Assembly (NCBI GenBank): GCA_008632985.1
Contig: QPGO01000042.1
Location: 186,001 to 250,000, forward strand
From: Psammoneis japonica
Lineage: Eukaryota
Direction of reading: 5' to 3'
DNA: 64,000 nucleotides
Made by a program: the position numbers and the translations under genes. Positions 1,088 through 37,790 of the stretch are shown in pieces. Each line of letters begins with the position of its first letter. Position 1 is the first letter of the stretch. The notes beneath the pieces are model-generated. The model worked only from the letters and a program-made list of their open reading frames with translations. It was not told the DNA's origin and ran no database searches.

Positions 1088-1302
1088 TTCAAGGATTGCT
1101 TCGATTGCTTTTGCTACGTATGATTAGCTATAAGGGATGAATCCGTAACCCTTTCGAAAAAGCGCTTGGGTGTTCGATGACGTCTGATATATGAGATGCC
1201 GTGAGAAAGTTGAAAACTTCCCTGAGTTCCTTCGCGAAGAACGCGTCACAATTCTCGATACACACAACGTCGTACTCGTACCTTCCCAAACATTAATGTA
1301 TC

Positions 1303-3631: not shown

Positions 3632-3683
3632 CACTTTTATCCAAAAGGTTTATGTGTACGGGGGAACTCTAAAAATAATGCTT

Positions 3684-13027: not shown

Positions 13028-13267
13028 GGACCGCCAGGTTAATCTGAATGTACTACGGTATTCCCTGTCGGTTGATGCGCAAAACAGGTCGAATCAAATT
13101 TCCAAGTCCTTGGCGGGCTACCCACCATTGCGTCACTCAATCACATGCTCAGTACGATGCCGTCCTGAAGAAAGCTATATACTATGTCATGCTTTTGTAT
13201 TTCAATAGGCAACAAACGGACTGTTATGCAAATAATGATAAAGTGCGAAGTCGTTATTTTCTTTGCT

Positions 13268-13950
13268 CTATGGAATAAGCGTGTCGAGAAAGGCGAGCGC
13301 GGGCTTTTTTGTTCTTGCCTCTGCCACATCTTCGTATCTGCGTTGCGCACAATCAATGAACAGCAGAGTGTGACATGAGCAAACTATCCATTCAAAGCAA
13401 CCAGACATAAATCCAAAACGATAGCTTACCGGATTGTATTCCTTCCATGAGACTGGGCGGTGCTGTGGCTCTCCTTCGCTAGACTTTTGAGGAAAAGCTC
13501 GGCAGCAAAAGTCGCTGCAATAGCCGCCTCGTTCTGAACTGTTGCAATGTCTTTATCAAGTTTCATTGTGCGCTTTACTGATCGAAATGGAATAGTGAGT
13601 CCCTTGACAGCTGGTGCTCTGCCTCTACGAGCACTTCCACCTCCGACCGATCCGTGGCTTCTCGGTCTCTTCTTGGAGGTTGATTTGGGAGTCGCTGCTA
13701 CCTCCTCGTCTTCAGTAGTTTTCACATTCATCTCTTCGTGTTCTTCCTCGTCCTCTACACCTTCATGTACTGTCGTTTCTTCCTCGGACACTTCGGGCTC
13801 GTCGCCCTCTTCTCGCTCGTGGCTACTACTCAAATCGTCGCCGGCCGCCGCATGTTCGTCCTCAACGTTGCTTTCATCAGCTGAACCAATCGTCTCGTCC
13901 GGAGCTGGCAGATCGTAGGACATTATATCATCCTCTTCTGAAGAGCTCAT
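13268..13950 (-). CDS. H2A-like histone-fold protein (CHRAC1/POLE4/NF-YC family) with acidic N-terminus; intron 13338-13429
   Basis: IPFRSVKRTMKLDKD...EAAIAATFAAELFLKSLA...RNTIR joined by splicing to YEDVAEA...LAFLDTLIP*. Confidence 0.85.
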
Positions 13951-14748
13951 CGTTCGAATAGACGCAATTTAAGCTCCCTCGTTAGATAATCGTGGTTGAA
14001 TAAAACGTTGGCGTAGTAGGCGTTATGGTACACAAGAGTGGCACGATGCACGATGCAAGAGAAGAGCGATGAGCGAAAAATGCCGGTACCAGTAAAAAAC
14101 CGAATTGAGTCCTTATTTTTGCCATATGTTGAATGGCCATTTTTTGCCCATCATTGGCCTAAAACTGACCATTTCTTCGCATTTCCTAGCTTTTCATCAT
14201 CTCTTAAACAGTTCTTTGATGATAGTTGGTTGTGAAATGGGCTTGGGATTAGCTTAATCTAGCTGCAAAAGTTGCACCTTTTTCGCGTAATGACTCAATT
14301 CGGTCCCCCCTGTACATTTCTACGTGTCAATTACCAGCAAAAATATAACATAGGGCCCTCCCTCCAAATCAGCAAGAGCACGGAGAAGTGATGATATATG
14401 ATGTACGTGTCTTTATAAAAAAAACTACATGAGAATTGTTGAATCTCGTTTTCGCTTCAAAAAATACAAACGACCATGTTCGACGGCAACGGGCAGCCGG
14501 AGAAAACTGAAACACCCAAATCCAAACACATGGTCAGAAGCAGCAGCAATTGAAGATTATCACAGCAACAAAAACAGTTTGATTACTTGGTTTTTTTATC
14601 ATTTTATCGATCGATTCAACACATGGGTCGGACAAGGACTCAGTTCAGTCCTAAGGACTCAATTCGGTTTTTTACTGGCATTAGAGTACCGGTAGTACTT
14701 GTATGTCTAGTTAGCGAGAATGTGATGTGTTGAGGGACAGACCAGAGT

Positions 14749-17700
14749 TCAGAACCGGCGCGCCACGCGCAAGCGTGCGCTGCGCGCCGCTCTTGTTGTC
14801 CTGGTGCAGGGGATGCTCTTGTTGATCAGATGTCCCTGGTGATCCATGAACAGCTTCATCAACAGCATCACGGGCATGGCATTGTTAACTCCAACAAGTT
14901 CAGCTTCTGCACTGCTTTGAGTGTTGAGCTTCTGGCACTTCGAAATGGCCTGCAGCACTGCTGGCTGCAAGATTCCCTTCAGCCGCTGTTGACACGTCGG
15001 TTCAACACCCGCTGCTTGCACACAGTGACAACTCCTCTGGTGTGCCTCTTGAAATCAGGATGTGCTGCAAAGATGCGCCCACGTGTCACTTGACAACTCC
15101 AAGGTCCTTCACGCTCAATGCAGTCACTTCATTTCTCACATCTGGTCCATGTGCTTGAGAAAATGGACTGGCTTCCCCCAGTCCTTGTTGGCAGGTGCTG
15201 CTCTCACTTGCATGCACAATGAAGCAACAGTGGGGCACACATCCATTTGGCCTCTCTTGGACAGGAGTGGCCCCTTGGCCACCCACGTGTGGAAGGTCTG
15301 AGCCTTCACATCTGACAATTTTGTGCCACTGGTGTCAAATGTTTTTTCTCTGGCTGGTGTCACAGCAAAATCTGCACTCTTCTTTGACTTTTCTGAGAAA
15401 CTGATCAATCATCTTGCAATTGCAGCTGTCCATGTCAACTTTCACTTTGCCCTTCTGGCTGAAGTCCAAGGTCACACCAAGATGGTCATGCCACATGGTC
15501 ATGACTTCACAATGGCTTCCACACAGCTTGTTTGGCCAGCTTGGAAATGTGTTGTTTGCTTTTGCACTCCTGTGGTTCAACAATGGGACATTCAAATGGA
15601 ATCAAATTGTGCACTGCTTGCCACTGGCCATTTGATTGGCAATGCATGGATTGTGTGGGTCAAACTCAAGCCCCATCTTTTCCAAGTCTTTGCAAAATTG
15701 ATTGCAATGTGGCAGAGCTGTGACTGGCACACCGCAGATGGCTCTGATGTGAGTTGGACACACAAAGAGCTCTCTTGCCTTTTTCCATGACCAATGTGGT
15801 CTGTGTGGGTTGGGATCAATGCTTGCCAGCATGTCAACCAACACTCCTGCAATCTTCATCACAATCTGATCTTTGCCTTTTCCAGGCTCTGGCATCATTG
15901 TCTGCGTGAATGCATTTGGTCCATTGGCACTCATTTCATGGCATCCTTTGTGAGCATCAATGTCCCTTCAAGGGATGCAGAGTGGGGCTGGTTGACTCAT
16001 CCTTGTCCAGCCACTCTTGGGTCAGCTTGCCATCACAGACCATTTGACCTTTTGTGCAACTGTCTTGTTTCTCAGTTGGGAACATCAAGGCTGCCATTGC
16101 CTTGGTCCTTTCAGTCAGAGTCACATCCTTGAATGACACTGCTGGTGCAAAGCACACTTGGTCATGTGGCTGTCTGATTTCTTTCTCTGAGACATTGTGC
16201 CCCTTCTGACTGAATGTTTTGAGGCCTTTGTGGAGCAAATGATGTTGCTGGGCACAATGTGCACCCCCTCTCTGCTTTTGAGTCAGTTGTTGATGTCATG
16301 CATGAAGCATGCAAGCACCATTTCTGTCTCCCCTTTGTGTTTGGCATCATCCTCTGGATTGGGTTTTACATCAGTGTGCAGATGGTGATGGCAGTGCTCA
16401 AGCTTGCACTGCTCTTTTGCTGCACTGCTGGCACCTGCCACTCCTGCAAATCAACCTTTCTTGTCCCTGTGTTGTTCATGTTAAAAGATGTGCTGAGCCC
16501 TTTTCCACCTCCTGCAGTTCTGCTTGGTGTGGCTCTTGCTTCTTCCTCCAATTGCTCACCTTCCCATCTGGCGTCTTCTGGGAATCTTTGTCCTCTTTGG
16601 ACTTTTCACTGTCACAGTGCTCATTGTTTTCTGGGTCTTCCTTGACCTCTTGCTCTTCTTGAGCTTTGGGCTGTCAGTCAGGGCTGGACCTTTTGTCAGC
16701 CAGTGTGTCATTTGCTTTGTTGCAATCACCACCTGAGTCAGGAGGTTTGTTTTCACAGTGTGCCATGTGGAGGGAGGGACAGACCATTGCAGAGTGAACC
16801 AGATGGATGGACGGGTCCGTGGACAGACAGATTGGACAATGATGATGACCATGTTGCAGTGTTCCTCTCTGTTGGTGCCTTGAGAAACGTTCCCACCCTG
16901 ACAATTTTGGCCGCAAAACACAACAATTTAGACAAATTTGTGCATTTACATGCTCCAGGCTGGGGTCAAATTTGAACAGCAAAAAAAGATCAAAATCACA
17001 TGTCAGGCTTGGTGAGGATGCCACACTGTGCAGCACTGTTGTTTGCAATGCTCTCTAGACAGTCCAGTGGAGAGACACCACAACCTTGTCAGCAACAATT
17101 GTTGTCCATTTTGCAATTGCTCTGCAGTGACTTGAGACTCATGATGATGCCAGTGAAGGACAGAAGAAAAACATCTGATGTCCAATCCACTGGCAAGGGA
17201 GGTGCAGAGAGAGCAGAAAGATGCATGAAACAATGGCACCCCAGCAAGAATGCAGCAGGTGAAACTGCCAAATGAAATTTCCACAGCATGTGAGGTGCCA
17301 AAAGGCACTGGACTTAAAAACTCTTGCTGCCCAGCAATGGCCCAAATCCATTTCAAAGAGTGAGAAACACAGAGCAAGTTGCAGAGAAGGGCTGCACACA
17401 ATGGAGCAAGGCACTGCAAGGCACATTGCCCATGCTGTTGTGCAAAACATTGAACCCCACCAGCGTTGTTGTCCTGGCTTGCAAAAAGGTCAATGAAATG
17501 AGTGCACACAGCCTTGTTCATCATCACATTCCATCACAATGGAGCACAAGCCTTGTTGTTCTTGTGCACCAAAAATCTCATTTTCTTGACTTTTGACTGT
17601 CAATCAAAAAGAACCTGCAGCACGCAACAAAGAACCACCTCAATGTGACATCAGATCATGCAGTCCTGTGATGATTTGGCGCCAAGTCTGCAGATGCACA
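14749..17700 (-). mobile_element. Decayed Ty1/Copia (CoDi-like) retrotransposon pol (RT, RNase H; probable integrase remnant)
   Basis: RNase H remnant QKLNTQSSAEAELVGVN. RT remnants KGLKTFSQKG...AMAALMFPTEKQD...GQMVCDGK and PNAFTQT...IVMKIAGVLVDML. Many stops and frameshifts. Confidence 0.85.
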
Positions 17701-17899
17701 GTTTGTGAAAAATCCCAATGCAGAATCTGAAGAAGAGAAAAAAAGACATCAAAACTGCAATTGGTCAACATGGTCATCATGAGCCACAACAACAACAACA
17801 AATAAAAATTCTGACAACTTGATCACATCAAGCAAAGTCTCATTGACCTGTCTCTTGTGCACTCTAACCTTCGCAACAGTCATTTGTGGTGCATGAATG

Positions 17900-20800
17900 G
17901 ATGTGTTCATGGAAGTGCAGCCATTGTGATGTTGCACAGATTGGAGAAAAAAAAGTGGGAGAGCTTGTGATGAAACTGCATTTGTGTTGCATCCAAACCT
18001 TCGGGGGGGGGGGGGGGGGGGGCTCAGCAGTTGGCCACCCACACAAGCAGGGTGACATCATGTGCACAACATTCCTGGCTGCGGCAATCCTGGCACTGAT
18101 TCTGCGAGACATCACATGAAACATTGCATTTTGCATGTGAAAAACACATGCCAGCAATTGATTCCTGGCCCCCAACTGCGACAAACTCATGTGCATGTGT
18201 TCAGAGGAAGCCTTCAAATGCCACCATGTGTGCAAATTTTTCTCACCTGATTGATGCAGGTCACACACACACACATGATGGTTGACCCCATCGATTGCAG
18301 TTGTGGGTCAGATGAGCTGTCATCAATGCAAGATCTTGTTTGAGATGACTTGGTAAAAAGGGAAAAATTGTGAGGGAACCAAGAAGAAACCCCCATGAGC
18401 TCATCACTGGTCAGAGGCCTTCTGATGGTGCCTTGAACATCCAATGCATTGGTTGGCATGCATGCATCAGAGAGGGTGCACTCAGTCACAGAGCACATGT
18501 CCCCAATTTGTTCACTCTTCCCGCCCTCCACAGTGCACTTGACTCAAACTCAAAACTGGACACATGCCAAGAAGGGAACCCAAGATGTTGGCAAGAAACC
18601 CTCAACTCTGACATGGCACCACACAATGAACATCAATTCCCTCAATGACATGCGGTGCTTGCAGCACCAAAACAGTCCTGTGGGCATGGACTTGCACAAT
18701 TTGAAATGGACCATGAGCTTGAGCATTCAGCTTTGATGGATTCACAGACTTGATCAATGCATCTTTTCCAACCAGACAATCACAGGAGCAATGCTTTGTG
18801 TGTCCCATCTTCACAGATTCTTGTCAATTGGCACTTGATGGTTGGCTTGAATCACAGCAAGATTGGAGACAACAGGTGGATCCAAATTCACATTGCATTG
18901 AAAAACCAGTGCTCCACTTGAAATGCCCACAGACCTTGAGTGGGAGCATTGCAATGCATGAGATGCTGTGTGGCAAGGGCATTGTCCACTGTCCCTTCAG
19001 CCTGCTGAACATTCAAAGGAGGGTTGGCAACAACCACAGTGCACAAAATGTCAGCTGCCATCTGGTGCACAATTTGTTCACAGACAGCATTGGCTGTTTG
19101 ACCATGAGCCATCATTGGAGCATCAGCAACATCCGCTTGATTCAGTGACATTTGAAATTCCCAACCAATGAACTTGCCACCCATGTCATGGATGCATCAA
19201 TTTGGTCTGGGACAAGGAGCCAACCAGAGGTTGTGAAAAAGTTGTTGGCAATGTGCTGAGAAATTTTGATGTCAATGCAAATGAGCTCAGTCAATCCAGC
19301 AACAGCATCAACGCAGGTGAGAGCACTGAACTTAATCTCTTGACCTTAAATTGGAATCTTCCAAGGCCCAACAAGGTCAACTGCAACTTCCAACCACGGA
19401 GCTGAAGGCGCTTGACGCTGTGGCAATTCTCCACATCCAGGACCACCAAGCTGTTTAAGACGTGGACACACATCACAAACAAATTCATTGCAACATCAAT
19501 GCAATGCAGGATGACACAAGTGAGTGTGGATGCTCTCATGCAGGTGGACGACTCCACAGTGGCCCAACACCCTGTGACAACAAGTGAGAACTTCAGGCAA
19601 CAATGCCGCAGGAGTGCAAATCTTGCAAGCTCCAGGCAGGTCATTCAATTGAAGATGACAACAATGAGAGGGGGCTGGCTTGCAATCTTGACCAGAAATT
19701 GCTGAGGATTCTGATGTCATTGCTGATCCAATTGATTGTCTTTGAACTGAAACTGCTGTGCACCCACAATGTTTTGGTGGGACTTGGCATCTCATCCAAT
19801 GTTGGGCAGTTCAAAAAGCATTCAAACAATTCTGGCTCATCAAGAAAAGAAGAAAAGGCATGCAATTCATCAGAATGATCAACAGGATCATGGAAACACT
19901 TGAACCTGCAAGTGCCTGACTCCAAATCTTCCTCTGCCTTGCTCACTTTGCTGCTGTCAAACTTTTCAAAATGAACAATTCTGCCTTTGCTCTCACTGAT
20001 CAGACCAAGGCTCTTCCCCTCTAAAGGCAGATCCATGCACGGAAGACAAAAAAAGCAATTGGCAAGCACACTGTCCTTGCCTTCAACATGCTCAAACGCA
20101 GGCACAAAATCTTCAAGGTGCAGGTGCCACTGGAGGATGTGCTGTGCATTCAAAGTGCAAAAGGTGAGATTTCTGTGGTCAGTGTGAGTGGAAATGTCAG
20201 TGCCAAACAACATGGTGCAGGATTGTTTGAAGCACACAACAACTGCAAGAAGCTCTTTTTCCATTGTTGAACAATTGCGCTGAGCAGCTGAGAGCTTCTT
20301 TTGGACCAATGTGCAAAAACATGGAACAGCAGGTCATGGTTTGGACAAGCAGAGAGCACTTCTGAAGCAATGACGGCCTTCATTTCTTCAAATGCCTTTT
20401 GACAAGTGCCCAGCCAGTGGAGCTGGCTCTTGTCTGTCAACTCTGTCAAAGGTGCACAAGCAAGTGAGAATGACAAGGCCATGCATTGCAACAGTGGGTC
20501 ACAGCACCCAAGAACAAACACAGTTGTGTGGCATTCTCTGGAGGTTGCATGCAAAGGATGGCTTTGACTTTCTTCTTCCACAACTTGCCTTTGTTTGGCG
20601 TGAGCTGATGCTGAAAAAAAAATCCACGTCTGCACACACCACTTGCATTCCAACGGGTTCACTTTCAAACTGTTCTCCTTGAGACAATGTGGCACTTCAT
20701 TGAGACAAGAGAGATGGGAGCATGAGTCAGCATCAAAAAGCACCAACATCATCAATGTGCACTTCAATGTCCAAACCATGTGAGATCATTCTGATGACAA

Positions 20801-22429
20801 ACTGCACAACATCCGGAGCCGGTTTCAGTCCTGCTGCCATCCAACAACACTGGAACTTGCAGTGGAGCACTGCAATCATTGCTGGCTCCTTGCTCTCTTT
20901 GTCTCAAATTCTAAATTGCAATGGAGCATTGTGAGATCAATCTTGGTGAAGAACTTGCATGCTGCTCTCTGCTGTAATGCATCTTGAATCACTGGCAGCA
21001 GACAGACCTTTTGCTTGAGCACTTTGTTCAATTTGCCAGAATCAGATGCCCAGAGCACTCTGCCATCTTTCTCTGGAATGACAAAAGCCCACACTGCCCA
21101 TTCTGCAGATCCACTTGGTTGTTGCACTCCCAGCTCCACCAAATGCTGCAGCTCCTTCTCCTTGAGTGCTTTTTCATTGGCAACTCAGCAAATGGTTTTG
21201 AGTGACAGGGCATGGCATTTTCATCTGCTTCAAGGTGTGCCTTTTCATGAGGATGATGGTCTGAAGTTCCATCAAACAACATGGAACACTTCTCCAATGC
21301 TGCTGGCAGCTTTGTCTTCTTTTCTTCATTCAAATGATCCAAACCTCAAATGACCTCTAAAGGATCCGCGTCACTTGGCACTTGGCATCCAAAACACAGC
21401 TGTCATGTCCATCTTCACAGCCACAAAATTTGACTTGTCCACGTGGTTGTCATCAACTTGTCCATTTGACAAAGGGCTGCATGCCAGTTGCAGGTCTTGG
21501 AGCAATGATGAGGCTCCTTCCTGCCTGGGGGTCACATGGTCTGGCCAGCACAGGCTTCTTGCATTGCAGTTCAAATGGATGAGTCCAATCTTGTCTAAGA
21601 AATCTCAGCCCAAAATGACATCACACGCACACAGAGCATCAAACACGTGAGCCACACAGTCATCTGCTCTTCTTGTCTTGTTGAATTCTGGCAGCGCAAT
21701 GTTGCTTGGAACTGCCCATCAACCTGACTGAAAAGGACCTGCTGCCATTTGAAATTTTCAAACTCCATGCACGTTGATGGAAGGTGCTGCTCCATGAGGA
21801 GGCAAAACTCAAGATGAAACCACAGTGTGAGAACCACCTGAGTCAAACACAACTTGCATCATGCAATTTGATTCTTGTGACTGAATTGATCTTGAACAAG
21901 CAGAGTGGATGGCACCAATGCAGCTTGCAAAACTTTTGCAAACTCATTTTGGGGAGAGAAGTGCTGCACTCAAACACGTCTTGACCATCTTGATCAAACA
22001 CATCCCTCTTTTCATTCATGTGATTTTCTGCAGCATCTTCAAATTCAACAGGCAACAATTTGTTGGGGTCTTCACAACAACCAAAAGCAAAACATTGATC
22101 ATTCTTGATTTCAGGTCAAACAGACTCATTTGCACTCACAAATGCTTCACATGTGGGCTCACATTTCACACACAGGCAATTGGGGGCATTCAGCTCCTTC
22201 TTCTCAGAACTGCCAAGGAAACTGCCCATCTGGCTGAAACCTCACCACTCCTTCTTGATGTGGAGGGCCTCATCAGATCACATCAAAATGGTGTGCATCA
22301 CCACGAGGAGCTTCTTGAGCCTGGTTGTCATTCACATCTGCTTGAGCAGCATGGCCATTGGTCTGTCCTTGACCACCACAGTTGTTGCAATCACTTGCCT
22401 GCAACAATGCTGGCCACTGCCTTGGTTCC

Positions 22430-22466
<37 letters not shown>

Positions 22467-23150
22467 CCCATTGTGGTTGTTGTTGCAATTGTTGTGACAG
22501 GGGCCACGACCTTGTTGGTTCTGGCTTCTGTGACCACCACAGCATCCACCACCATGTTGGCCATGACCACTGCAGTCTCCTTGAGAGTGACTTCTGCCTC
22601 AGCCTCCTCCACCATGGCCACCACCACAACCGCCACACAGCTCTGACGTCCACAACAATTGGGGTCATTCAGGTTGTCACAACACCAGCCCCAGGCATGC
22701 CTTCCTTGATGCCATGGGACCAACACACATCACTGGCCTTTGGCTTGCTCTTTCTGCTTCACTTGTCATGATTGACCTGCTTGTCACTGGAGTTTCTGCC
22801 ATTGCTGTCATCAGACTTGCATTTCTCATCATCCTGACCATTGACAAACACTTTCTCATTGCTTGTGCAGGTGTGAACATCCACCATGGAGTCTGCAACA
22901 AAATTCTTGCCCACATGAATGTGGGGCTGCTGCCATGCCAGCAGCAGAAAAGTGTGGAAAACTGCACTCTTCTGCTCCTGCTCTGTCAGCTCTGGAACAG
23001 CTCCAGGCAAATGGCTGGCACAATGGAAAAGAGTTTGAACAACTGCTGCCATGACAGCTGGGAATTGGGTGTGTGACAAGACAGAGTGTTGAACAGCATC
23101 AACAGGTTCTAGAATTGTGAGGTGTTGCACTGCTGGGACCACTGATTGAG
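17900..23150 (-). mobile_element. Decayed Ty3/Gypsy (GyDi-like) retrotransposon: gag-pol plus probable 3' LTR
   Basis: RNase H KLSAAQRNCSTMEKELLAVV...HTDHRNLTF. RT FVIPEKDGRV...LPVIQD...FFTKIDLTM. Gag H-x3-H-x-W-x2-C knuckle-like motif (~22670-22720). Polypurine tract GGAGGGCGGGAAGAG followed by TG at ~18514. Confidence 0.85.
22432..22466. repeat. (TTG)n microsatellite within the Gypsy gag region
   Basis: Directly visible TTG run. Confidence 0.9.
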
Positions 23151-23199
23151 CAACAGTTGTCTAATTGCCAACAACACATAAACTGCCTGTGTTTGTGAC

Positions 23200-25445
23200 A
23201 GTGTGTCAGCATTTATTTAGTCCCCTTGAACTGACACCAGCTTGGCTCAAGTCAGATCGACAGACAAATGCAGCCTGATGCTGCCCCATTCCAGGGCAGC
23301 ATTTTAGATTTTGGGGGTGGGAAAAGCTGCACCTGCACGGCAAACCCATTGGGTTTGTCCCCTTTTGGGACTCACCATAAAGTGTGACTTACAATTTCCC
23401 GGAGATTTGGTCCAGGCAACAACCCAGTCAGCACGTCCGTCAGATTTGTGTGTCCGTCTTCCCAAGCAATGCGCACTGTTCCAGTGGCTTGGGCCTCACG
23501 AGTCCTGTGATGGGCAAATGCATTGTGTTTCTTCTTCAATGTAAACTCTGGTCTAGTTGAGTTCTTGAAGACAGCTTCATTGTCGCAAAAGATGTTGGTG
23601 GCCCCATCCATGGGCATTTCAAGCATCCGAAGCTTGCAGCGCAATGCTTTGATCTCCTCCACTGCAGTCTTCATCCCAACAAACTCTGACCCAAAAGCAG
23701 AGGACTCTATGGCATTCTGCTCTTTAGAGCAGCATGATGTGGCTGGGTGCTTGATGGATGAATGTCTGCATCACACGGCATCCAGTGTGATCAGCATCAA
23801 CAAAGCAAGCACTGGTCACTCTGTTCCCATGTGTCTCTGGCATTTTTGGTGGCATTGGCTCAGCTGCGCCAGGGCAACATTCTTCCCAGTCGCACTTTGC
23901 AAATCAGCTCTCAAAAAGGCAGGCTCAGTGTTGTTGAACACCAGCACAGACTTGGGATGAGCCTTCAAGTGTGCAAAGACATGGAGCACCTCATCCAGGT
24001 GTCCAACTTGTGGTGCTGCCAGGTGGGAGGACATGAGCGAGACAGTGACAAAAATGTCCACACACCCCAGTTCAACTGCCCAATGGAGCACACCGACAAG
24101 GCCTTGGCAGCAGTTGGCCGTTTTGGCATTCAACTCAGGTGAACCGTCCAGTTCAGGCCTGCATCCCAAGCTCAAGGGTGTCAACACCTTCGTCAGAAGA
24201 CGTCTGTCAGTTTTCTCAACCTCCAGTTCAACATCAGCTAATGCCCTTTTGACATGAAAGTCAGAGGACACAGCCCAGCGTGTCTTGCCATCCGCGTCAG
24301 ACAACTGGCACTTTCTGATTTGGGCACCTGAGTGCTCTTCCGGCTTGCAGACACTTCCATGCTTGAGCGTGCACCTGGAGCTCACACAGTCCATGACCTT
24401 TTGGGGCTCATGGGAGACGCACAACAGGTTGTCTACAACACAGACAAGTGCATGTTCCCAGTGCTCAAAGCCATCTGGCTTTACGGCAGGGCACATCCAG
24501 ACGTCTGGGTTGGCCTTGCAAGACTCGAAACCAGCGTCACGCAAGGTCACTGCCATGTGTTCTCCAAATCATGCACCTGGCGACTTGAGACCACACAAGG
24601 CTCGGACAACAATGACCGGCCTTCCCACATTGTGCTTCCCAAATTCCAGGCCAGCCACAGCACATAACTTCTCCTCAGTGTGTGCGTTCAGGTGGGGGGC
24701 ATTCTGCACATTGGCGCTCAAGACCTCCAGATCATTGAGAGCGGCAATGGCGAACACTGTCCTGACACTGTCAAGCGACACCATGCTAGAATGTGTCAGT
24801 TCTTTGGGCAGATTGGTTTGGTGGCCTCTGGCCATGAACCTTGCTTTGCATTGGAGGGTGCTCTTAATGTCAAAGACCACGTGACAGTCAATGTGCTTGT
24901 GCCCGACTGGTGCAGCGTCGTTGTCTCGGAACTTGAACGCAGGCATGACGTTGCACATTTCCTTTTCTACAGCCTTGAACCAGAAGTCAGTCCCCATTCT
25001 GTTGTCTGTCTCTAGAGCTTCCTCAACAGATTTCAGGAGTTAAATTCCAAACTTGTGCGTGCCTTTCCAGCAACGCGAAGACTTGACCTTCTCTTCAAGA
25101 CCCCAGTCCTGCGACGCAGCACGTCTCTGACCCACCAGCCAAATGTCAAATGCTGGCTCACTGGCTGCCTTGTTCACCACAGCATGCTTGGCAACCTCAA
25201 CTGGGTTTGATTCCTTCAAATCCTTGAGAGGAATCCAGGACGCAGTCCTGTCCTTCCATTTGACTTGCACATCCTGGCCTGCAGTCGTCATCCCAGGTGC
25301 ACGCCTGCCATTCTCAGTTGTCATGTGCACCCGTCGTCAGCCTTTACGGCATGAGCATCACTTTGGTGATCAACTGTCTCCTTCAGGATTTGGTGGGCAT
25401 TGCCTTTGGAGTCCACTTGTGAGAATGGATTCTCTGCAATTACGT
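23200..25445 (-). mobile_element. Decayed Ty1/Copia (CoDi-like) pol: RT + RNase H, 5'-truncated
   Basis: WKDRTASWIPLKDLKESNPVEVA; HIDCHVVFDIK..CKARFMARGH; VVRALCGLKS; CKANPDVW...VCVVDNLL; FCDNEAVFKNS...LKKKHNAFAHH...NLTDVLT. Confidence 0.92.
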
Positions 25446-25465
25446 TAGCAGCACAAGAGTCCACA

Positions 25466-26165
25466 TCCGATCTTTTCCGATCTTGAACGCATTTTTCCTA
25501 CAGTGCCTGATCGACGTAGGTCACACCACCTAACGGTCGAGCGTTGAATTTGTCTTGCTGTCCGATGCTTTCCGATGTTGAACGCATTTTTCCTACCTGA
25601 CCGACGTAGGTCACATATATTTAACGGTGGACCGTTGATTTTAGTCGTGGATCACACGAACTGTCGCCAATCCCTAAGTGATCTGACATCTTGCAGTCAT
25701 CTTGTTTGAAAGTATCCGATCTTTTCCGATCTTGAACGCATTTTTCCTACCTGATCGACGTAGGTCACACCACCTAACGGTCGAGCGTTGAATTTGTCTT
25801 GCTGTCCGATGCTTTCCGATGTTGAACGCATTTTTCCTACCTGACGGACGTAGGTCACATATATTTAACGGTGGACCGTTGATTTTAGTCGTGGATCACA
25901 CGAACCTTGCAGTCATCTTGTTTGAAAGTATCCGATCTTTTCCGATCTTGAACGCATTTTTCCTACCTGATCGACCTACCATAGGTCACACCACCTAACG
26001 GTCGAGCGTTGAATTTGTCTTGCTGTCCGATGTTTTCCGATGTTGAACGCATTTTTCCTACGTACCTGATCGACGTACTGTAGGTCGTACCGGTAGGTCA
26101 CACATACACACCTACCGGTAACGTTCGAGCGTTGAGGAGTACTCGTATCCGATCTTTTCCGATGC
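25466..26165. repeat. Tandem array of ~90-155 bp units with alternating A/B higher-order structure
   Basis: Core TCCGAT..TTTCCGAT.TTGAACGCATTTTTCCTACCTGA.CGACGTAGGTCACA starts at ~25466, 25561, 25715, 25805, 25931 and 26026, with a partial unit at 26148. Confidence 0.95.
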
Positions 26166-26209
26166 TGGTGAGCCCCGCACTTCAGTTGTGACTATGAATA
26201 GGGCAATGA

Positions 26210-27132
26210 ATGACTGAAGAAGATAAACAACAAGAATCATCATCGTCGTCGGCAACCACCACCACTATCCACACACCATCGACCTCAACCGTACGCGTCA
26301 AGACGCGCCGGGTCGTCTGCGCCATACCATGGGTCCACAGTTTCAATCCAATCGCATTCCCGGAAGAAGATTTGCGCGAACGTTTGCGTTTGGATGCATG
26401 TCAGCAGCAGAGTAGCAGAAGTATTACCCTTCGGGTGCGATTCTCCGTGCACAAGAAATTGTGTCATGGCTGCTGCAACGACAGCAGCAGCAACAACAGG
26501 ACGACGAGCGTAGTGCTAATACCACGGAAACCATCAAGTCGTCGGTGGCGGTCTGACGAGTGCACACGTTGCCATGTTGTTGGCATCATCATCACCTCAG
26601 TGAAATTAAAAAAATACGAAGTCCAATCGCTGCAACGTTCCAAATTACTCCAACGCGTCGCAAGTGTCTCGAGAAGTTTTGTAAACATTAGTCGTCCAAC
26701 CAGCGACTAGCATTTGTCAAGCAAGCTCACAAGGGTAGAAGTATCCCGCCCGAAATGGTGCAGACCTTGTACGACAAGTCATCCATTTCGATTTTGGATG
26801 AAACCAGTATCGAACAGGTGGACTGGTGTCCGACGGATGGTCAATTTCATGTCACATTTGAAACCAATCATCTGTATGGGGGATGTAGTAGTGTATGCAC
26901 CGCGCATGACGATGAACCGCCTTTGAGTGGTACCTTTCATCGGTTTATACTGCAGACCGGAGTCCAAAATACTCTTGACAAATATCCAGCATTGATGGCA
27001 CTCCAACAAGAGTTGCCCGTTGACGTAGCGGAAGGCTTGCCGGTATTGAACGACAACGACTTGTCGTGGTGTACAGCAAAATATGATAGGGACAAGGACA
27101 ATGATACTCGTGCGTGGCAACAAACTTTGTGA
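26210..27132 (+). CDS. Hypothetical protein or pseudogene in two ORFs (26210-26710, 26755-27132)
   Basis: ATG-initiated ORFs with normal TA/CG content, unlike the surrounding repeats. The join (intron or frameshift) is unresolved. Confidence 0.4.
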
Positions 27133-27999
27133 CAACGATGCTTTGTTTTGGGATCCCTTGCCGCCCATGCCCTGGATCCGATGCCCTCAACTTGTTGGTC
27201 ACACGTCATAGAGCCGTCCAAGTGGCACGAGCCCTTCGAAAAGATATGATAGAGTAAACGATTTGTGGATACTACTCGAACTCAATTCTGATTGATCGCT
27301 GACTTCAATTACGAGCTTTTCGTTGTAGTTTGCATGTTGCATAGCAGAATTTTGGCAACACCCTTTCATTTACTGAGGCAGTGATATTCCGAGTATCGAG
27401 ACGTATAAACATCGTTCGCCAGCTTCTTGGTCGATACCCTTACCATTTCCTTGGCAAAAGTATCACTAAGATTTGTGGAGGTTGTTGCGGTGCACTTCAG
27501 TCAAGACTGCCATTTTACATTGCTCATCTCCTGTGCCAGAGCCCCGGTTGATTGTTGTTTCCCGTGTCAGCTCTGTGGAGTCACTAAGGTCATTTAAGCT
27601 GCACCGCATCCCAAACTCAAATCATCTCCACCGTCGACGTATGTAGACCTGTTTCGCCTTGAGCATTGAAGCCCTTTGAGTTGTCAATGGTCTCGCAAGA
27701 CTGTGTCATGGACTGCTTCACATTGTTTGTGGCATCTTCCATGCTTGATGAATGCACTTGATGCTGTTGACTGCCAAATGCCAGGGCCATTGCCTGACAT
27801 GTTGAACGACATTTAACAATTCTCTCAACATGCACTGCACAATGGAATCTGTTGTCTCTTCACAAAATCATGAATGGATGTCTGAACCTTCATTCAAAAT
27901 TCAGTTGCTGCTGACGTGTGCAGTCCCTGGTTTTGACAGGTTCACTCCAGTTTTCTGCACAACGTCCCCTGCCAGATCATTCAATCTCATGTGCAATTT

Positions 28000-30900
28000 T
28001 GCAGCATGCATGTGCTGGCGTTGGCCAGCCTTTCATTTGGGGATCCCTTTCTTGCTCGAGTCACAAACATTCCTGATGAAGTTTTTATTTGTTGCAACAT
28101 TGTTCTTGACTGTGGCATCATTGCAGTGCTTTCCGACAAAATGCGTGGACATCAATGCCAAGCAATTTGTTGGACACCAGACAGTCCTTTCCTGGTGGTG
28201 CCACTTTGGAAATGCAGCAGGATTTGCAGCACTCTGCTGACAAGTTTCCTGAAGTCCTTGTTTCAGTCAGTGGTTTGTCCAGCTTGTTTTGCTGCAAAGA
28301 CTTTCAGAGTTCTTGCACTTCTCTCTGTTCAGAAGCCTCCCATCATGCTCTGTCAAGCACTTCTTCAGCACACAAGTTTTATTTTGTGCTTGTTTGATCT
28401 GCACTCTGGATTCCAGCATCTTGTTTGGGTTTCTTGCTTGCAATGACAGCAAGAGCAACATCTCAGCAACATCTTGGCAACAGCTTGCCTTTGCTCAGGG
28501 TCACATTCGCAGCACAGTTGCCAATCTCAGAGAACTGTGGCAAGAGGTGCAAGCATGGACAAGGCACAAAACAGAAACGTTTTTTTTAATCTGATGTCAA
28601 GGGGGCAAGAGGCAAGCACTTCTCGCAGCAGGAAAAAGAAGGCATGAAACAAAGTCGGCAAGTGTGCAACATGCAGCTGCAATCATTTTAAAATTTTCCT
28701 GCATTCTCTCGCGGTTTGAGGGACTTCAAAATTTTGTCATCAAATTTTTCAATTTGACTTGTGATGCTGTGTTGCAACTTTCCCCACACAGACACCAAAG
28801 GACCCCGATCCAATCGACCCCCACCCTTCCAGACAGTGTGCCAACCGACCATCCACAGACACTGCTGACATCATGCCCAGCTAGAAGATGACAAAAACCT
28901 GCCACCAGGTGGCCTGTTCCAATTCTACAGGCCGAATGTCACACGAAGTCCCACCTGGGATTGAAGCCCGTCCCACACAAATGTCGCGCGCAATGATGAC
29001 AGCCATGGCCTTGCCGTGGTTCATCACAGAATGCCAACACTTCCAAGAATGACAAAACACATTTGCATTTTTGATGTGATGATCAAATGAATCAATTTGT
29101 GAGCAAGATGAGAGATGCAGATCACGGGCTTCATTCATCTTGATTGCCCAGCGTCGCTTGCTCTCATTTCTGCCTCTTTCTTGACGCCTCACACATTTGT
29201 CACACTTGTTGAGGGCATTCACAGTGGCAATGTTGCACAACGACAAAGTTGATTGAAATGAGCAAAGCACATGTTGGCAGCCCTCAGTGTTGCACGTGGG
29301 CGCCGCAGTCTTGACAGCAACAATCAGATGATTGAACCCAGCGGCTTTCGATCTTGCATCGGATGGTGTTTGTTTTTTCTGGAAGTGCTTCCCTGGGACA
29401 CCCGAAGGCAGCCGATCCCTCCAATGTGCAAATGCAGCTGAATGGCCATTTTCCCCAATCGAGTCTGAATTGCAGTCAGCGTCAAAGCAGTTGTCACATG
29501 CTGAGTGTGGCTTTCCTGGGAATGTCTTCTTGGGTCCGGCATCATCGCCCACACTGCTGCAATCAACCATTTTGCCTGGTTGTTCCAAGATCACACAAAT
29601 TTCCGTCAGGCCCATGGCACCCCATCCATCTGTTCGTGGGTGCAATTTGTGTTGGTGAATGCAAGCCTGAGGTCGGATCCGGTGCACATCCGACATGATC
29701 ACTGTCTGACTGCCCTTGGTGATGCCGGGCTTTCCAACCATGCAACTGGTGATCCCGCGCCACCAGCTTCACCATGGCCCACATGGCCCCAGGTGGTTTC
29801 ATCACCACATTGATCCATTTCTGCGTGCAGCATCATTGCGTTGAAATTGTGCACTGTTGTCATGCAAAGCATGTCACACTTGTGTGCCGGGTTGTGCCCG
29901 GCTTCACCTCTTCTGGGGGATGTCATGTTGTTGCATGGCTTCAGCACTTGCTTCATTTGAAGCCAACGTGAGCAGCAAATTGACAAGGATGTGCTCAAGT
30001 TGCAGTTGGATCCATCAGCCATCCACCTGTGGTGAATGGCTCCATCACTGCCACCCTTGACGCCGTCTCGAACAATCACTCCATCAAATCTGACAAGCTC
30101 CTGGACATTCACAAGTTTAAAATTGTGTCCATGCAATGAGCACAACTTCAACTCTGCCATGGCATGCAAGTTGGAAAATGTTTCTGCTTTGCTGTGGAAC
30201 AACTTTCTGGGGTCTGAGTTGACACCCGACCATGCAGTGTCACACATTGGGAGAATCAATTGACAGAAAAACAAAGCATCCCGATTTTTCATCTGCCCAG
30301 TGTTCATTCCCAACAATCGCAATGCACCCGCATCCAAAGATCCTTTCCTCAGTGCTGGAAATGGGTTGTCTTTTGATGCGCCCGATCTGTTGGGCATTGA
30401 CAGCATCAAATCCTTCTCAGCAACATCATGACTGGACATTGACCTCTCCCATCCCTGACAAAAGAACTTCCATCCATGGCAAATTCTCTTCCCTTCCAAA
30501 TTCTCTGGCACCAGCGCAGCACCAGTTGGCAAGCCATGCTGAATGCACTTCTTCTCCCCTCTTGCTTCAAACTGAGGGCGGAAAGCATGTCCACTCCACA
30601 CTCCTGGATTGTCCACATCAGCAAATGGTGGCTCCCCCTTGTTTGCTTTTATCTCAGATGGCTGCCACCCTTCAGGAGCACCCAGAATGTTCAACTGCAC
30701 CAACGGGTCATGCTTGCCAAGGTGCAGTGGCAAGGCAGTGTGGTTGTTGTCAGCCACAGTCTGCTCATTGTTCATCACTGTCTTGGTCTGCAACACGCGA
30801 TCTCAACCTTTCCAAGCAGGCATCAGCACAAGCTCCATCAATGTCATTGACATTCTCATGCTCTTCATTGCCATCACCACCATCTCCCATCTCTGTCTCA

Positions 30901-31100
30901 TCCGCAAGGATGTGCTCGGGGTCCACTGGTTGGTCCTCCGCAGTTGCGGGACCAAAGTCTGTGGCCATCATGTGCAGTGGGCCCAGCCCTGGTTGTTGTG
31001 CCGCCATTCCACCAAACACTTCATTGGCACTTGCAGAAGTGGCCATCTTTGTTGCAACGTTGACACTCCGATTCACTGTGCATGTTGTTTTGACAACAAT
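28000..31100 (-). mobile_element. Decayed piggyBac-like DDD transposase
   Basis: Catalytic-region remnants DQCGDETTWGH, HSACDNCF and LHLSSCSQIDSFDHHIKN...HSWKCWH resemble piggyBac D-E / DNYF / Y..ID..D...KYW motifs. Limits approximate. Confidence 0.75.
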
Positions 31101-31120
31101 GGGGTGGCTGCGGTTGCTTG

Positions 31121-31121
<1 letters not shown>

Positions 31122-31181
<60 letters not shown>

Positions 31182-31464
31182 NNNNNNNNNNNNNNNNNNN
31201 NNNNNNNNNNNNNNNNNNNNNNNNNNNNNNNNNNNNNNNNNNNNNNNNNNNNNNNNNNNNNNNNNNNNNNNNNNNNNNNNNNNNNNNNNNNNNNNNNNNN
31301 NNNNNNNNNNNNNNNNNNNNNNNNNNNNNNNNNNNNNNNNNNNNNNNNNNNNNNNNNNNNNNNNNNNNNNNNNNNNNNNNNNNNNNNNNNNNNNNNNNNN
31401 NNNNNNNNNNNNNNNNNNNNNNNNNNNNNNNNNNNNNNNNNNNNNNNNNNNTGTGTGTGTGTGT
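31122..31464. repeat. (TG)n microsatellite interrupted by a 270-N assembly gap (31182-31451)
   Basis: TG runs on both sides of the N stretch. Confidence 0.95.
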
Positions 31465-33069
31465 TTTCATTCATCGGCTTTCAAGGCAGACTCGGGTGAC
31501 ATTTCTGCGGTGATGCATCACTCAAAAAAACCCAGGTTTCAGTCCCCAAACACCCCGGGTTTCAAGCCCACTCCAATGACGACCACAAAATGCCAATGCA
31601 ACTCCAACCATCAGACATGTCATTTCAAGGGCAAACAGTGACAGACATGGGGTGAAAACCCGCGGACTGCCAATCAATGGTCATTTGATCTTTCCATTCA
31701 ACGGCCAACAGGTTCCAGTCCTGGGTGGGAAATTTGGCCCGCAGAATTCTACATGCAAGCTCTGCAGCATGAGAATTTAATTAATGTGTGTTTTCATCTT
31801 CAACATCAAATGCAACGGCCAAGTTCACAGCACATTCATGCCTGTCCACACTCAAAGTTTTTGGTGATCCACCTGCCCTGCGCCATTCCCAAGACATTTG
31901 CAAATGGCACAGAAGAAAAAAATGTTAAAAGTTGTTGAATGGATCACTCAACAATTGCACTACAAAATGACACAAAATTCCACCAAAGTCACGTAGAAAT
32001 GCACACGCGCGACATGCGGCGCTATCCAAAAAACTGTCGATGTCACAGGTCAGCAGAACGAGGTCCCACCCAGAGCTGGAACTCGTCGGCCAACAGCTGG
32101 TGAAAAACCTGGGACTGAATCCCAGGTTTTTTGGGACACCCTGACCAAATGACACAACATCCACTTTTTCATTTATGACAGTTCCTCATTGCTGCACTGT
32201 CTTTCCTGCGCCGATCAAATTTGCGGAGGGCAATGTGAAAACATGAACACAAGCAAGTCATCGCAACAAAAAACTCTGCAGTGTCACCATGTGTGTTTTG
32301 CTTCATGTGATGACGTGGCGTGGCATCTGATCAAGTGTTGAGTCGTGGCCATTAAAAATGATGCTGTCATCCGCCCACAGGCTCCTCCGTTGCAGCAGTC
32401 GTTCCACTGCACCGTCACACCCAAAATTCCGCCCAAGCAGTGTTTTTCTGCTGGAAAGTGGAGTTCTCACATGTGGAAATGTTGACACTCAGTCAGTGTC
32501 TTCTAAAAATTTCTGCCGCACATCCACTGTCACTCCACTCAGGCAGAAGGCACAGCAGAATTTTCGGAGCCAAAAATTCCACCCTGCACGCCGCTTTCGC
32601 GCGATCTAAACCATCTGTCCTTGGTGAGGTCGGGTGCGACGGTATGAACAAAAAAATGCTGAAGTTCCACTCGTCTCAATGCGGCACCTCAACCATGAGC
32701 ATCGCCGAGTGCAACCCCAGCAAATGTGCCAATGCCAACCACATACATTTTGGCATGGAAAGCAGCACTCACAGGTGTCCTGAGTACATTCGTGCTGCTT
32801 GTGGTGAAAACAGACGGATGACTTGCACCACTTTCAACTTTGACAAGCTCTGAAGCACCTGTTTGAGATCATTGTTGTGAGTTCTATGTTTGAACAGTGC
32901 CAAACAATTGCACCAGACAAAGAATTGTCAGCATCTCATCGAACTTCTGCCAGCTTGACAAGAAAACAAGCTGCTCCCCAGCGCTGAATGCATTGCCAAA
33001 GGTTGCAACCATTGACACCTCTAGATTGTTCCACATCCTCAGCTTGAGATGCATTTTTCAATGACTGTT

Positions 33070-33840
33070 TGGTCCGCAATGACCTTGGTGCTTTTGCTGC
33101 AATGGGTGCTGAGTGGACCTGTGAGCGACAACGAGACCGGAGAAACAGTGAGGAGCAAACTCCGCCACACTTAAAAATCATCAAACGCCCAAAACATGAG
33201 ATGTGCACAACAAACAAACATTGCCACCACATTTTTGACTCTGTCATCAGCAAATTTTGTTGTCCTCACCTTTGCAGCCCAAGCCGAGCTTGATCAGGAA
33301 TGCAACTGTGTCTGACGCGGTGGTGCTGATTGTGCCCTCTCTCACAGCAAAAGTCGCCAAACATCCAAGAGGTGAGAAGTGCCAAGAAATCCAATGCACG
33401 CATCATTTTTTTAAACAATCACAGTGGTCCACAACTGTGTTCATGCCGTCGCTGCAATGGGTGCCAGGCAGACCTGTGAGCGATCACAAAACAAGAGCAA
33501 CAGTGAGAGAAAAACTGTGCAACAGAAAAAAACATCAAACGCCCAAAAGACGGGCTTTGCAATGAATGCAAACACAACCATGAGATTTTTAAAGTTCACT
33601 TTAGCAAGTGTTGGCATCTCACCTTTGTCCTCAAATCACCGAGTGGAAATGTCAACACCACTGTTGCCGACGCGGTGGTGCCGCGTGTTTCCTCTCTTGC
33701 AGCAAAAGTCACCAAACACCCAAAAGGCAAGGGCAAGCAAAAAATCCAACAAAAGCATCATTTTTTTCACAGTCGCATTAGTCAATGTTGGCGTTCACAC
33801 CTTTGCTGTAATGGGTGCCGAGTGGAACTGCGGGCATTCA
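33070..33840. repeat. Degenerate ~355 bp tandem repeat (about 2.2 units)
   Basis: GCTG(C/T)AATGGGTGC recurs at ~33096, 33451 and 33805. GACGCGGTGGTGC...CAGCAAAAGTC.CCAAACA recurs at ~33314 and 33669. Confidence 0.75.
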
Positions 33841-34599
33841 AAGGCCATGGTCCAGGTGACGGCGCGGTGTTTTTTTGGCGTCGCTCTTTGCTCTAGCTTG
33901 GAGTTTTTTTTCTGCTTCAACTCCTCGCGTGGGTTTGCGTAGGTTGATTGCTAGCACGCAGCTTCTGTGCTGATGGCCACGGCTTGGTCTTCTTCCCCGT
34001 AGGATGATCAATGCTCTCTACAGAGTGGAACTGAAGGGTGGATTTTTGCGGATGTGTCCCACTGTTTCATGAGCCATGTGCACTGGCACAAAAATCACGT
34101 GGAATTTTTACGTAGAAAAAATCATAAAAATCAGGGTTTGGGCCGATTTTTTTCTCGTGCTTCTACCGTGCTTCTCGGCTCCACCGACGCCTCAAGGAAT
34201 CGTTTTCCCCTGAAACCATTGACACTTTACATGATGACTTTTGCACAAGTGACACGATTCTGTGCATGAACACTTCAAAGTTCCATTTTCAGAAATTCGA
34301 TCAACACTTCACTGCGGTCCCACTACGGCGAACATTTTCCAACGCAAAGTGTCAACCATCATGACTGAAATCGATTCCTTGAGGTCGTGGCCTATTTTTC
34401 GCAAAGCACGTGGGAAAAGCACACGAACAAGATGTTCTACGTGAATTTTCTACGTGAGTTTTGCACCAGAAATCGGCCCAAACCCATTTTTCGGGACTCA
34501 TGACCCCTGCACATGGCTGATGTTGCACTCCAGCAGTAGAGAGTAGAATGAATCATCAACCATGGAGTCACTTGGATCGAGCAGGGCACGTGCAGCTGA

Positions 34600-37500: not shown

Positions 37501-37700
37501 CTTCTTGGGACTGCCGCAGTGCAGACAAAGAAGGCCCACTTTGGTGGAGAAATTCATTGAAAACTGGGGAGTGCAGTGCAAGACTGACAGCAATGTCAGT
37601 GCAGCATGCTCCTCCAAAGCTTGAAAAACCTTCAAGGTTGGAAAGTGCCATTGCAAGACAGAGCAGGCTGGCTTCCAGCATTTGAAAATGCAAAGCCAAG
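34600..37700. mobile_element. Unclassified decayed element(s), probably DNA-transposon derived
   Basis: Broken ORFs on both strands, strong TA depletion and repeated subterminal-like motifs just upstream. No diagnostic catalytic motif recognised. Confidence 0.35.
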
Positions 37701-37790
37701 CAGCACTGAAGGAAAAAGGGATGTTTTGCACTCATTGACAATCCCAGGTTGTCAGGTGTGTGGCAATGTTGCTCCTGCATCATGCAATGT

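Follow-up and report, generated by a model that had tools for sequence, protein, structure and literature searches.

Hypermutation of integrated DNA at the dinucleotide TpA has one described precedent, the alga Bigelowiella natans. According to the preprint that describes them, mutation-accumulation lines of this alga contain two integrated viral regions that mutate about 1000-fold above the rest of the genome, and the new changes, which lie in giant-virus and virophage insertions, are almost solely TpA to TpG or CpA (Mettrop et al., bioRxiv 10.64898/2026.01.13.699255). The same account reports 124 TpA-poor, CpA- and TpG-rich clusters across the genome and an enrichment of transposon-type Pfam domains in TpA-poor genes, and its authors suggest an ADAT2-like adenine deaminase (bioRxiv 10.64898/2026.01.13.699255). 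For diatoms, neither depletion nor hypermutation of TpA came up in our literature searches, in which this 2026 preprint was the single precedent. Here, we describe a 64,000-bp stretch of nuclear DNA of the diatom Psammoneis japonica (contig QPGO01000042.1, positions 186,001 to 250,000; hereafter the window), in which a cluster of dead mobile elements lies between ordinary genes. Besides unidentified sequence, it contains a Copia-type element, two of Gypsy type and a piggyBac-like one. We judge it probable, at roughly 0.72, that TpA was erased from this mobile DNA at the DNA level and on both strands, by a process of the B. natans type superposed on CpG decay. The locus would be best filed as a second, distant lineage for that type of hypermutation.

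The likeness to B. natans, as the preprint presents it, covers the TpA target, the same two products, action on both strands, and the restriction to foreign or mobile DNA with normal sequence beside it. There are also clear differences. B. natans is a chlorarachniophyte, a rhizarian host, whereas the present host is a diatom and belongs to the Stramenopila. The targets described there are viral insertions, while here they are long terminal repeat (LTR) retrotransposons and a DNA transposon. The reported Rho for a nucleocytoplasmic large DNA virus (NCLDV) region of B. natans is 0.45, whereas depletion here is near saturation, at an observed/expected ratio (o/e) of 0.07. The main text of the preprint gives 0 occurrences for CpG, in contrast to the strong loss of CpG (the CpG arm) at our locus. 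Finally, the B. natans mutations were, in that account, measured as new, and the process described here is deduced from its end state.

Two other mutational defences invite comparison. Fungal repeat-induced point mutation (RIP) likewise hypermutates duplicated or mobile DNA by transitions at a favored dinucleotide, and it too breaks reading frames and leaves sharply bounded, skewed blocks. However, RIP turns CpA/TpG into TpA, with TpA rising and GC falling, whereas here TpA is lost, CpA and TpG rise and GC is unchanged. The C-to-T change at CpA with gain of TpA that marks RIP is thus replaced by a skew in the opposite direction. ADAR hyper-editing and the G-to-A changes caused by APOBEC3 in animals also produce enzyme-driven clusters of transitions that inactivate mobile elements, and ADAR prefers a 5' U. 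These enzymes have RNA or single-stranded cDNA as their substrate, prior to integration, and affect one strand, whereas at this locus a DNA transposon and resident duplicates are affected, on both strands.

Over the whole 64 kb, dinucleotide counts gave o/e ratios of 0.38 for TpA, 1.39 for CpA and 1.40 for TpG. The deficit lies in two blocks separated by a short island of normal composition (Table 1). In the blocks taken together (26,882 bp), the o/e of TA was 0.07 (4.8 per kb), that of CG 0.32, that of CA 1.73 and that of TG 1.81, compared with 0.61 (42.4 per kb), 1.02, 1.10 and 1.10, respectively, in the flanks (33,801 bp). The remaining twelve dinucleotides differed by at most 0.22 in o/e between blocks and flanks, and GC content was equal (0.477 vs 0.473). 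Per kb, the joint deficit of TA and CG (77.0) matches the joint excess of CA and TG (83.9). The edges are abrupt. TA occurs densely as far as 14712; after that there is one at 14886 and then none up to 15300. It reappears at 25441, 20 bp away from where Copia homology ends (25461), and there is no TA at all across 43900-44439, the right border being at 44440. With the border near 27644, the four TA borders (14712, 25441, about 27644 and 44440) confine the depletion to mobile DNA and spare the neighboring host sequence. Within these limits, depletion spans all of the approximately 27 kb, coding motifs and sequence between identified genes alike.

One consequence of the skew concerns stop codons. 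The TAA and TAG triplets fall from 9.3 per kb in the flanks to 2.3 (TAA) and 1.3 (TAG) per kb in the blocks, a loss anticipated in a preliminary description of this DNA, and many long open reading frames (ORFs) therefore appear in all six frames. Stop-to-stop ORFs of 90-370 codons overlap one another in all six frames between 15000 and 44000, a region for which gene callers will probably return spurious genes.

The effect on protein sequence is clearest in the Copia-type fragment, which by homology is a member of the Ty1/Copia (RVT_2, PF07727) retrotransposons. A precomputed PF07727 match exists for 112 of its 113 homologues, the best of which is 58% identical over 92% of the query; the fragment's own RVT_2 match (E 7.9e-5, 22.8 bits) lies under the cut-off of 31.6. 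Full polyproteins measure approximately 1250-1415 aa in the homologues, and homology here runs from 25461 to 23375 on the minus strand. A single frame (25336-23372, minus strand) is interrupted by five in-frame stops, TAA at 25042 and TGA at 24571, 23818, 23773 and 23374. Among its 655 residues there is not one Tyr, compared with 3.5% Tyr in the homologues, while His (5.0%) and Cys (3.8%) stand above their levels in the homologues (2.5% and 1.3%).

The preliminary description had proposed that positions normally occupied by Tyr in these enzymes read His or Cys, and the Copia motifs that it quoted are all present on the minus strand: LRCKL (23630-23644), AHHR (23504-23515), VCVVD (24431-24445), RALCGLKS (24581-24604), QNAPHL (24689-24706) and VAKHAV (25178-25195). 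To tabulate the changes, the frame was aligned to 42 of the 113 homologues and columns were selected by a consensus share of at least 90, 80 or 60%. At the 90% level, Tyr was changed in 11 of 11 columns (6 His, 4 Cys, 1 Val) vs 33 of the 164 non-Tyr columns (Fisher p 9e-8); at 80%, in 16 of 16 (8 His, 7 Cys, 1 Val) vs 62 of 281 (p 1.5e-10); and at 60%, in 20 of 20 (10 His, 8 Cys, 1 Val, 1 Leu) vs 112 of 410 (p 2e-11). The proposal thus held on both counts that it named, since Tyr columns were changed far more often than others and 18 of the 20 had become His or Cys. Because Tyr codons are TAY, loss of TpA turns a conserved Tyr into His (CAY) or Cys (TGY), and the His and Cys codons of the window at these columns are indeed CAY and TGY. 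In the same element, Phe was changed in 0 of 13 columns and Lys in 3 of 29. Changes at Ile (ATA), expected to yield Met or Thr, were present as well: Ile was changed in 12 of 15 columns, and the outcomes were Val, Thr and others.

The catalytic region of this fragment deserves separate mention. Where YVDD is expected, one extra codon is present and the sequence is LVCVVDN, in which Asn replaces the second catalytic Asp. The lone Tyr-to-Val change sits at this point, where the alignment is ambiguous and the adjacent Cys may be the former Tyr. The earlier suggestion that loss of the YxDD Tyr would inactivate the elements agrees with a visible loss of the motif, as (C)V(V)DN in Copia and CVDN in the second Gypsy-type copy, and by the five Copia stops; inactivation itself is plausible.

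The piggyBac-like element, a DNA transposon, shows the same pattern more cleanly. Its transposase gene points to a divergent piggyBac-like family, a label that rests on homologues (626 at E 0.001 or better). DDE_Tnp_1_7 (PF13843) was detected in 5 of 11 tested homologues at E <=0.001, three of them above the 22.4-bit cut-off, whereas the window's own ORFs gave no Pfam match even at E 1. The motif SWKCWH was located at 29031-29048 (minus strand), and the Tyr loss claimed for this element was found in full, although the family name put forward with it was not confirmed on the window's ORFs. Against 18 homologues, Tyr was changed in 6 of 6 columns at the 90% level, 13 of 13 at 80% and 19 of 19 at 60% (11 Cys, 7 His, 1 Arg), compared with 19 of 130 non-Tyr columns at the 80% level.

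The Gypsy-type copies agree. Four homologues were used for these, and every conserved Tyr was changed, 26 of 26 in copy 1 (13 to His or Cys) and 19 of 19 in copy 2 (8 to His or Cys). Where homologues read NYSTMEKE and YIDD, the window reads NCSTMEKE, QCTTMEKE and TCVDN, YIDD being CVDN in copy 2; the quoted strings fall at 20253-20279 (RNCSTMEKE, minus strand), 42047-42070 (QCTTMEKE, plus strand) and 41501-41515 (TCVDN, plus strand). Pooled over the four elements by tblastn-based mapping, 0 of 87 conserved Tyr were kept, and 61 of the 87 had become His (25) or Cys (36). As a control, the gene for MTHFR in the flank kept 7 of 10 conserved Tyr.

The direction of change, TA to CA or TG, had previously been deduced from protein conservation and can now be read directly from DNA. 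Scanning metagenome contigs yielded 79 loci with relatives of the Copia polyprotein, and the 62 with an ORF of at least 600 aa were used for a codon alignment. Where TA is conserved in at least 80% of these 62 intact relatives, the window kept it at 0 of 14 sites and carries CA at 9, TG at 4 and GT at 1. Retention in the same alignment was 22 of 23 sites for AA, 8 of 9 for CA and 11 of 14 for TG. The pol genes of the 79 relatives have a TA o/e of 0.46-0.90 (median 0.69) and a median CG o/e of 0.90. None of the 1292 windows of 600 bp in these loci fell below a TA o/e of 0.2, in a set biased to intact copies.

These values bear on the idea that the families avoid TA and CG adaptively as part of their native composition, and that the copies are merely divergent. 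Some viruses and mobile elements do mimic the dinucleotide bias of their hosts. Yet the TA content of the relatives speaks against such avoidance, as do the replacement of invariant Tyr and of a catalytic Asp, the broken frames, and the equal depletion of non-coding and unidentified sequence within sharp borders. We regard this explanation as refuted.

Loss of TpA is not the only change. Replacements at well-conserved columns were classed by whether reversion in a single context restores the consensus residue. Among 44 such replacements in Copia (90% level), 16 revert through CA/TG to TA and 14 through CA/TG to CG, whereas five control contexts explain 6, 1, 0, 1 and 0 (the AT control overlaps the TA rule, since a TAT-to-TGT change satisfies either) and a RIP-like rule accounts for none of the 44. 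The 14 left unexplained include several clustered near the stops at 23.77-23.82 kb. In the piggyBac-like element, 11 of 11 replacements were explained at the 90% level (7 by TA, 4 by CG) and 27 of 32 at the 80% level; the RIP-like rule again explained none of the 11. A CpG to CpA/TpG arm, which the preliminary description had not seen, thus runs parallel to the TpA arm and is visible as Arg, Asp-to-Asn and Glu-to-Lys replacements. A G:C to A:T arm at CpG, of similar size, is superposed on the A:T to G:C changes (14 vs 16 of the 44 replacements).

The CpG arm is in itself ordinary, since diatom transposons are CG-methylated, in a manner that depends on DNMT5a according to the published description (PMC9998398). 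Decay of CpG by deamination of 5-methylcytosine (5mC) accounts for this arm and for its amino acid replacements, but it cannot reach TpA, whose arm is here both stronger and faster. Along the locus, the two arms come apart. At 34-36 kb, CG stands at an o/e of 0.8-1.0 while TA is at 0.08-0.26, and at 37.5-44.3 kb both are near zero. By coarser division, CpG o/e is 0.4-1.0 over 28501-37500 vs 0.0-0.25 over 37501-44300 with TpA depletion uniform throughout, and the arms therefore differ in rate or in time; the CpG arm may be a separate process. One metagenomic Copia relative (L023:3-2069) shows CpG decay without the TpA arm, with o/e values of 0.03 for CpG, 1.45 and 1.58 for CpA and TpG, and 0.46 for TpA.

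A single trigger for both arms could nevertheless be imagined. T:G mismatches from 5mC deamination might recruit mismatch or long-patch repair, with A-to-G errors of a polymerase-eta-like enzyme at WA motifs. Polymerase eta does make A:T to G:C errors at WA motifs, and CpG and TpA loss do share elements. However, WA includes ApA, which is not lost (AA o/e 1.26 in blocks vs 1.13 in flanks, with conserved AA kept as described above); TA is nearly gone at 34-36 kb, where CpG is barely affected; and the relative L023 combines almost complete CpG loss with retained TA. Error-prone repair is, in our opinion, quite unlikely. GC-biased gene conversion was also set aside, since AA, TT and AT show no depletion and CpG is lost.

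Some measure of the relative speed of the arms may be taken from the piggyBac-like gene. Its 1727 bp hold 2 TA, 45 CG, 204 CA and 184 TG, yet 5 of 143 well-conserved columns carry a change outside both arms. On this basis, very roughly, the mutation rate at TpA would have exceeded that at other sites by a factor of the order of 100 or more, and would also have exceeded that at CpG.

The most direct evidence for the site of action comes from duplicated sequence within the right block. Between the members of a paralogous pair (Table 1), a shuffle test found 15 positions at which one copy has CA and the other TG, against a mean of 1.11, and 0 of 5000 column shuffles reached this number. In a tandem duplication there were 3 such doubles against a mean of 0.05 (again 0 of 5000 shuffles). 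These CA-vs-TG doubles are explained by a palindromic ancestor, TA or CG, that was resolved independently in each copy, which implies that the process acted on resident DNA and on either strand. The approximately equal numbers of His and Cys outcomes (binomial p 0.20) agree with two-strand action.

The same observations decide the case of RNA editing, in which double-stranded RNA of the transposons would be edited from A to I next to U and then reverse-transcribed and re-inserted. To our knowledge, ADARs occur in animals only. A 5' U preference is nonetheless typical of ADAR-type editing, as the preprint on B. natans states (bioRxiv 10.64898/2026.01.13.699255), and three of the four identified elements are retrotransposons. 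But the DNA transposon is the most cleanly affected, depletion is equal in all sequence between identified genes, strands are equally affected, and the window copies diverged by CA-vs-TG doubles after duplication. The doubles between paralogues and the clean mutation of a DNA transposon therefore rule out an RNA intermediate edited before integration, and a role for RNA editing is largely refuted and highly improbable.

We thus have the target dinucleotide, the products, their direction, action on both strands and in place, and sharp borders, all without need of an RNA intermediate. The process that we favor would be a DNA-level one that acts after insertion and on both strands. At nearly all TpA sites, one of the two bases would undergo a transition from A:T to G:C and so yield CpA or TpG, and the effect would end abruptly where mobile DNA ends. 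CpG would be stripped from the same elements by a second, slower process with the same CpA/TpG products, most simply 5mC deamination because diatom transposons are CG-methylated. Replacement of Tyr by His or Cys would destroy catalytic motifs, TAA and TAG would vanish, and the elements would be left dead. In effect, this would be a genome-defence action of the RIP type with reversed polarity, in which TpA is removed instead of created.

The sequence context of the target may be approached through the TAs that remain. The blocks (14900-25400, 27600-31181 and 31452-44250) retain 129, among them 35 in CTAA/TTAG, 27 in TTAA and 11 in CTAG. Pyrimidine-TA-purine makes up 73 of these (57%), vs 240 of 1433 (17%) in the flanks, and purine-TA-pyrimidine 5 (4%) vs 440 of 1433 (31%); ATAT is absent from the residual TAs, compared with 8% of flank TAs. 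This skew suggests that T-A-pyrimidine is the preferred target on each strand. Tyr codons lean in the same direction, but a flanking-base rule on them was not significant (16 His to 15 Cys after a purine, 9 His to 21 Cys after a pyrimidine; Fisher p 0.12). The agent could be a TadA/ADAT2-type adenine deaminase acting on DNA, to which we would give about even odds; in tRNA, the natural target of such enzymes, A34, is always preceded by U33.

Alternatively, the T in TpA might be modified in silent chromatin, for instance to 5-hydroxymethyluracil, and mispair with G, giving T-to-C. By sequence, T-to-C is indistinguishable from A-to-G on the opposite strand, and the two products are about equal. 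Our literature searches turned up no such modification in diatoms, however, and the skew of residual TAs fits the tRNA-type context of an adenine deaminase at least equally well, so we consider a thymine-side mechanism unlikely. Deamination of N6-methyladenine (6mA) was set aside. According to the available description, eukaryotic 6mA sits at ApT in active chromatin with no loss of ApT (PMC12695648), and at this locus ApT is not depleted either (AT o/e 0.87 in blocks vs 0.93 in flanks).

The possibility that the depleted sequence is not real was also considered. TpA and CpG modified in silent chromatin could have been miscalled, with TA and CG still present in the true sequence. Methylated motifs can mislead some base callers, the sequencing runs come without a library record, and the assembly platform is not on record. 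Against this, contigs built by k-mers from the reads of one run (X1) match the depleted stretches with 0-3 differences over 0.9-1.9 kb, at a word depth of approximately 60-75 compared with 58 in the flank; examples cover 16086-17124, 18080-18940, 18988-20170 and 20144-21156, and a contig at 27094-29027 joins the normal DNA of the island to the depleted DNA of the right block. Moreover, frameshifts, TGA stops within the frames and replacements outside TA and CG (14 of 44 in Copia) are present in the elements as well, and paralogues show either product at one site, as expected from random fixation and not from a deterministic miscall. A base-calling artefact thus appears very unlikely. As an observation apart, the X1 contigs and the window differ by four CA/TG doubles, at 28293/4, 30235/6, 30817/8 and 30927/8, the first of which falls within a contig of 1934 bp that shows three differences altogether; these may be a sign of alleles or copies in which the site was resolved differently. 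A second run of the same sample (X2) gave contigs solely at 13000-14650 in the flank and 26157-27281 in the island, a run X3 gave none, and neither was used as evidence.

Several points weigh against B. natans-type erasure, or limit it. The X1 reads may come from the very sample behind the window's assembly and hence not be independent. Rate and ongoing activity would be deduced from the end state. The Gypsy results rest on four homologues of 23-53% identity, and His or Cys account for just 13 of 26 and 8 of 19 changes there. The context preference relies on residual TAs, which may in part be new mutations, and the corresponding test on Tyr codons stayed at p 0.12. The patterns used to search for relatives (ALYGL[KR]SSG and [YF]SKRQNTV) contain Tyr, so mutated relatives were not catchable and the scan says nothing on other organisms. 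As the CpG arm affects the same elements, one process on both palindromic YpR steps is possible, although the region at 34-36 kb argues for two. Finally, the older-looking Copia copy keeps 15 TA in 1965 bp (pol TA o/e 0.13, CG 0.42) while the younger-looking piggyBac-like copy keeps 2 in 1727 bp, and TA loss is therefore no simple clock. Relatives vary at all 15 residual Copia sites, and these TAs may be either survivors or new.

A wider reading is possible but tentative. Diatoms may own an active, enzyme-driven defence that erases TpA, homologous to that of Bigelowiella and either an old trait of the Stramenopila, Alveolata and Rhizaria (SAR) or spread within this group, with a tRNA-deaminase-like T-A-pyrimidine context, and it may mold diatom genomes, their transposon landscape and their dark matter alike. 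If true in diatoms too, TpA erasure would not be one alga's curiosity, and would constitute a second major mutational genome defence besides fungal RIP, in organisms that are among the most important marine primary producers. A second, distant host also makes the question of the enzyme testable by comparing the two gene sets. There are practical implications as well. Hypermutated elements escape profile-based annotation, as illustrated here by the lack of a Pfam match in most ORFs and by an RVT_2 match under its cut-off, and the loss of TAA and TAG gives long spurious six-frame ORFs that may be taken for genes. In diatom assemblies, joint depletion of TA and CpG could be used to map silenced DNA and estimate its age.

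Table 1. Features of the 64-kb window; coordinates are positions in the window.
Feature	Coordinates	Strand	Remarks
Left TpA-depleted block	14713..25440	strandless	Per 500-bp window over 15001-25001: TA o/e 0-0.25, CpG 0-0.54, CpA and TpG 1.4-2.3
Gypsy-type pol, copy 1	18605..21895	-	Several frameshifts; Pfam RT_RNaseH E 3.2e-11
Copia-type pol, C-terminal half (reverse transcriptase and following C-terminal part)	23372..25461	-	tblastn with five homologues, 51-54% identity
Island of normal composition between the blocks	25441..27644 (2.2 kb)	strandless	TA o/e 0.66, CpG 1.22
Three-copy direct repeat	25465-26126		Copies 221-249 bp apart; copies 1-2 88-99% identical, third about 65%; adjoins truncated Copia end
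Island ORFs without recognizable family	26210-26707, 26692-27129
Right TpA-depleted block	27645..44439	strandless	TA o/e 0-0.26 throughout; CpG o/e 0.00-1.01, element-dependent
piggyBac-like transposase gene (DNA transposon)	28920..30796	-	One frameshift; homologue-based
N run (scaffold gap)	31182-31451		270 N; inside right depleted block
Paralogous pair	37791..38100 and 42572..42858	+ and +	59 mismatch positions, 14 adjacent CA-vs-TG doubles
Tandem duplication	38753..40785	+	About 1 kb, 95% identical
Gypsy-type pol, copy 2	40961..42527	+	More decayed; Pfam RT_RNaseH E 2.4e-9

The genes in the flanks encode eIF4E, an MFS transporter, DnaJ, a ubiquitin-conjugating enzyme, eIF5 and MTHFR. In a homologue search, the closest matches of the MTHFR ORF were 74% identical, and its best named relatives were exclusively diatoms (Seminavis robusta at 68%, Nitzschia, Cylindrotheca, Cyclotella, Thalassiosira, Mayamaea and others), a result that sets the host among diatoms and apart from Bigelowiella. 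Within the blocks, a Pfam search of 108 ORFs gave two RT_RNaseH matches only, and relaxed thresholds gave no further reliable match. For the two island ORFs, Pfam profiles gave no family, and a metagenome search with the ORF at 26692-27129 returned weak, mixed leads. Low-complexity sequence of trinucleotide type is found at 22300-22770 and 17992-18031, where it reads as poly-Val, -Asn, -Gln, -Leu or -Cys depending on frame; read placement skipped 22424-22474 and 17992-18031 as repeats. Over 22600-25000, summed contig depth reached approximately 950-3860, compared with approximately 60 for single-copy sequence, and 966 of 1512 contigs placed over 13000-31000 showed no more than 90-95% likeness. 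This genome contains many diverged copies of the Copia family, with a likeness of at least 90%.

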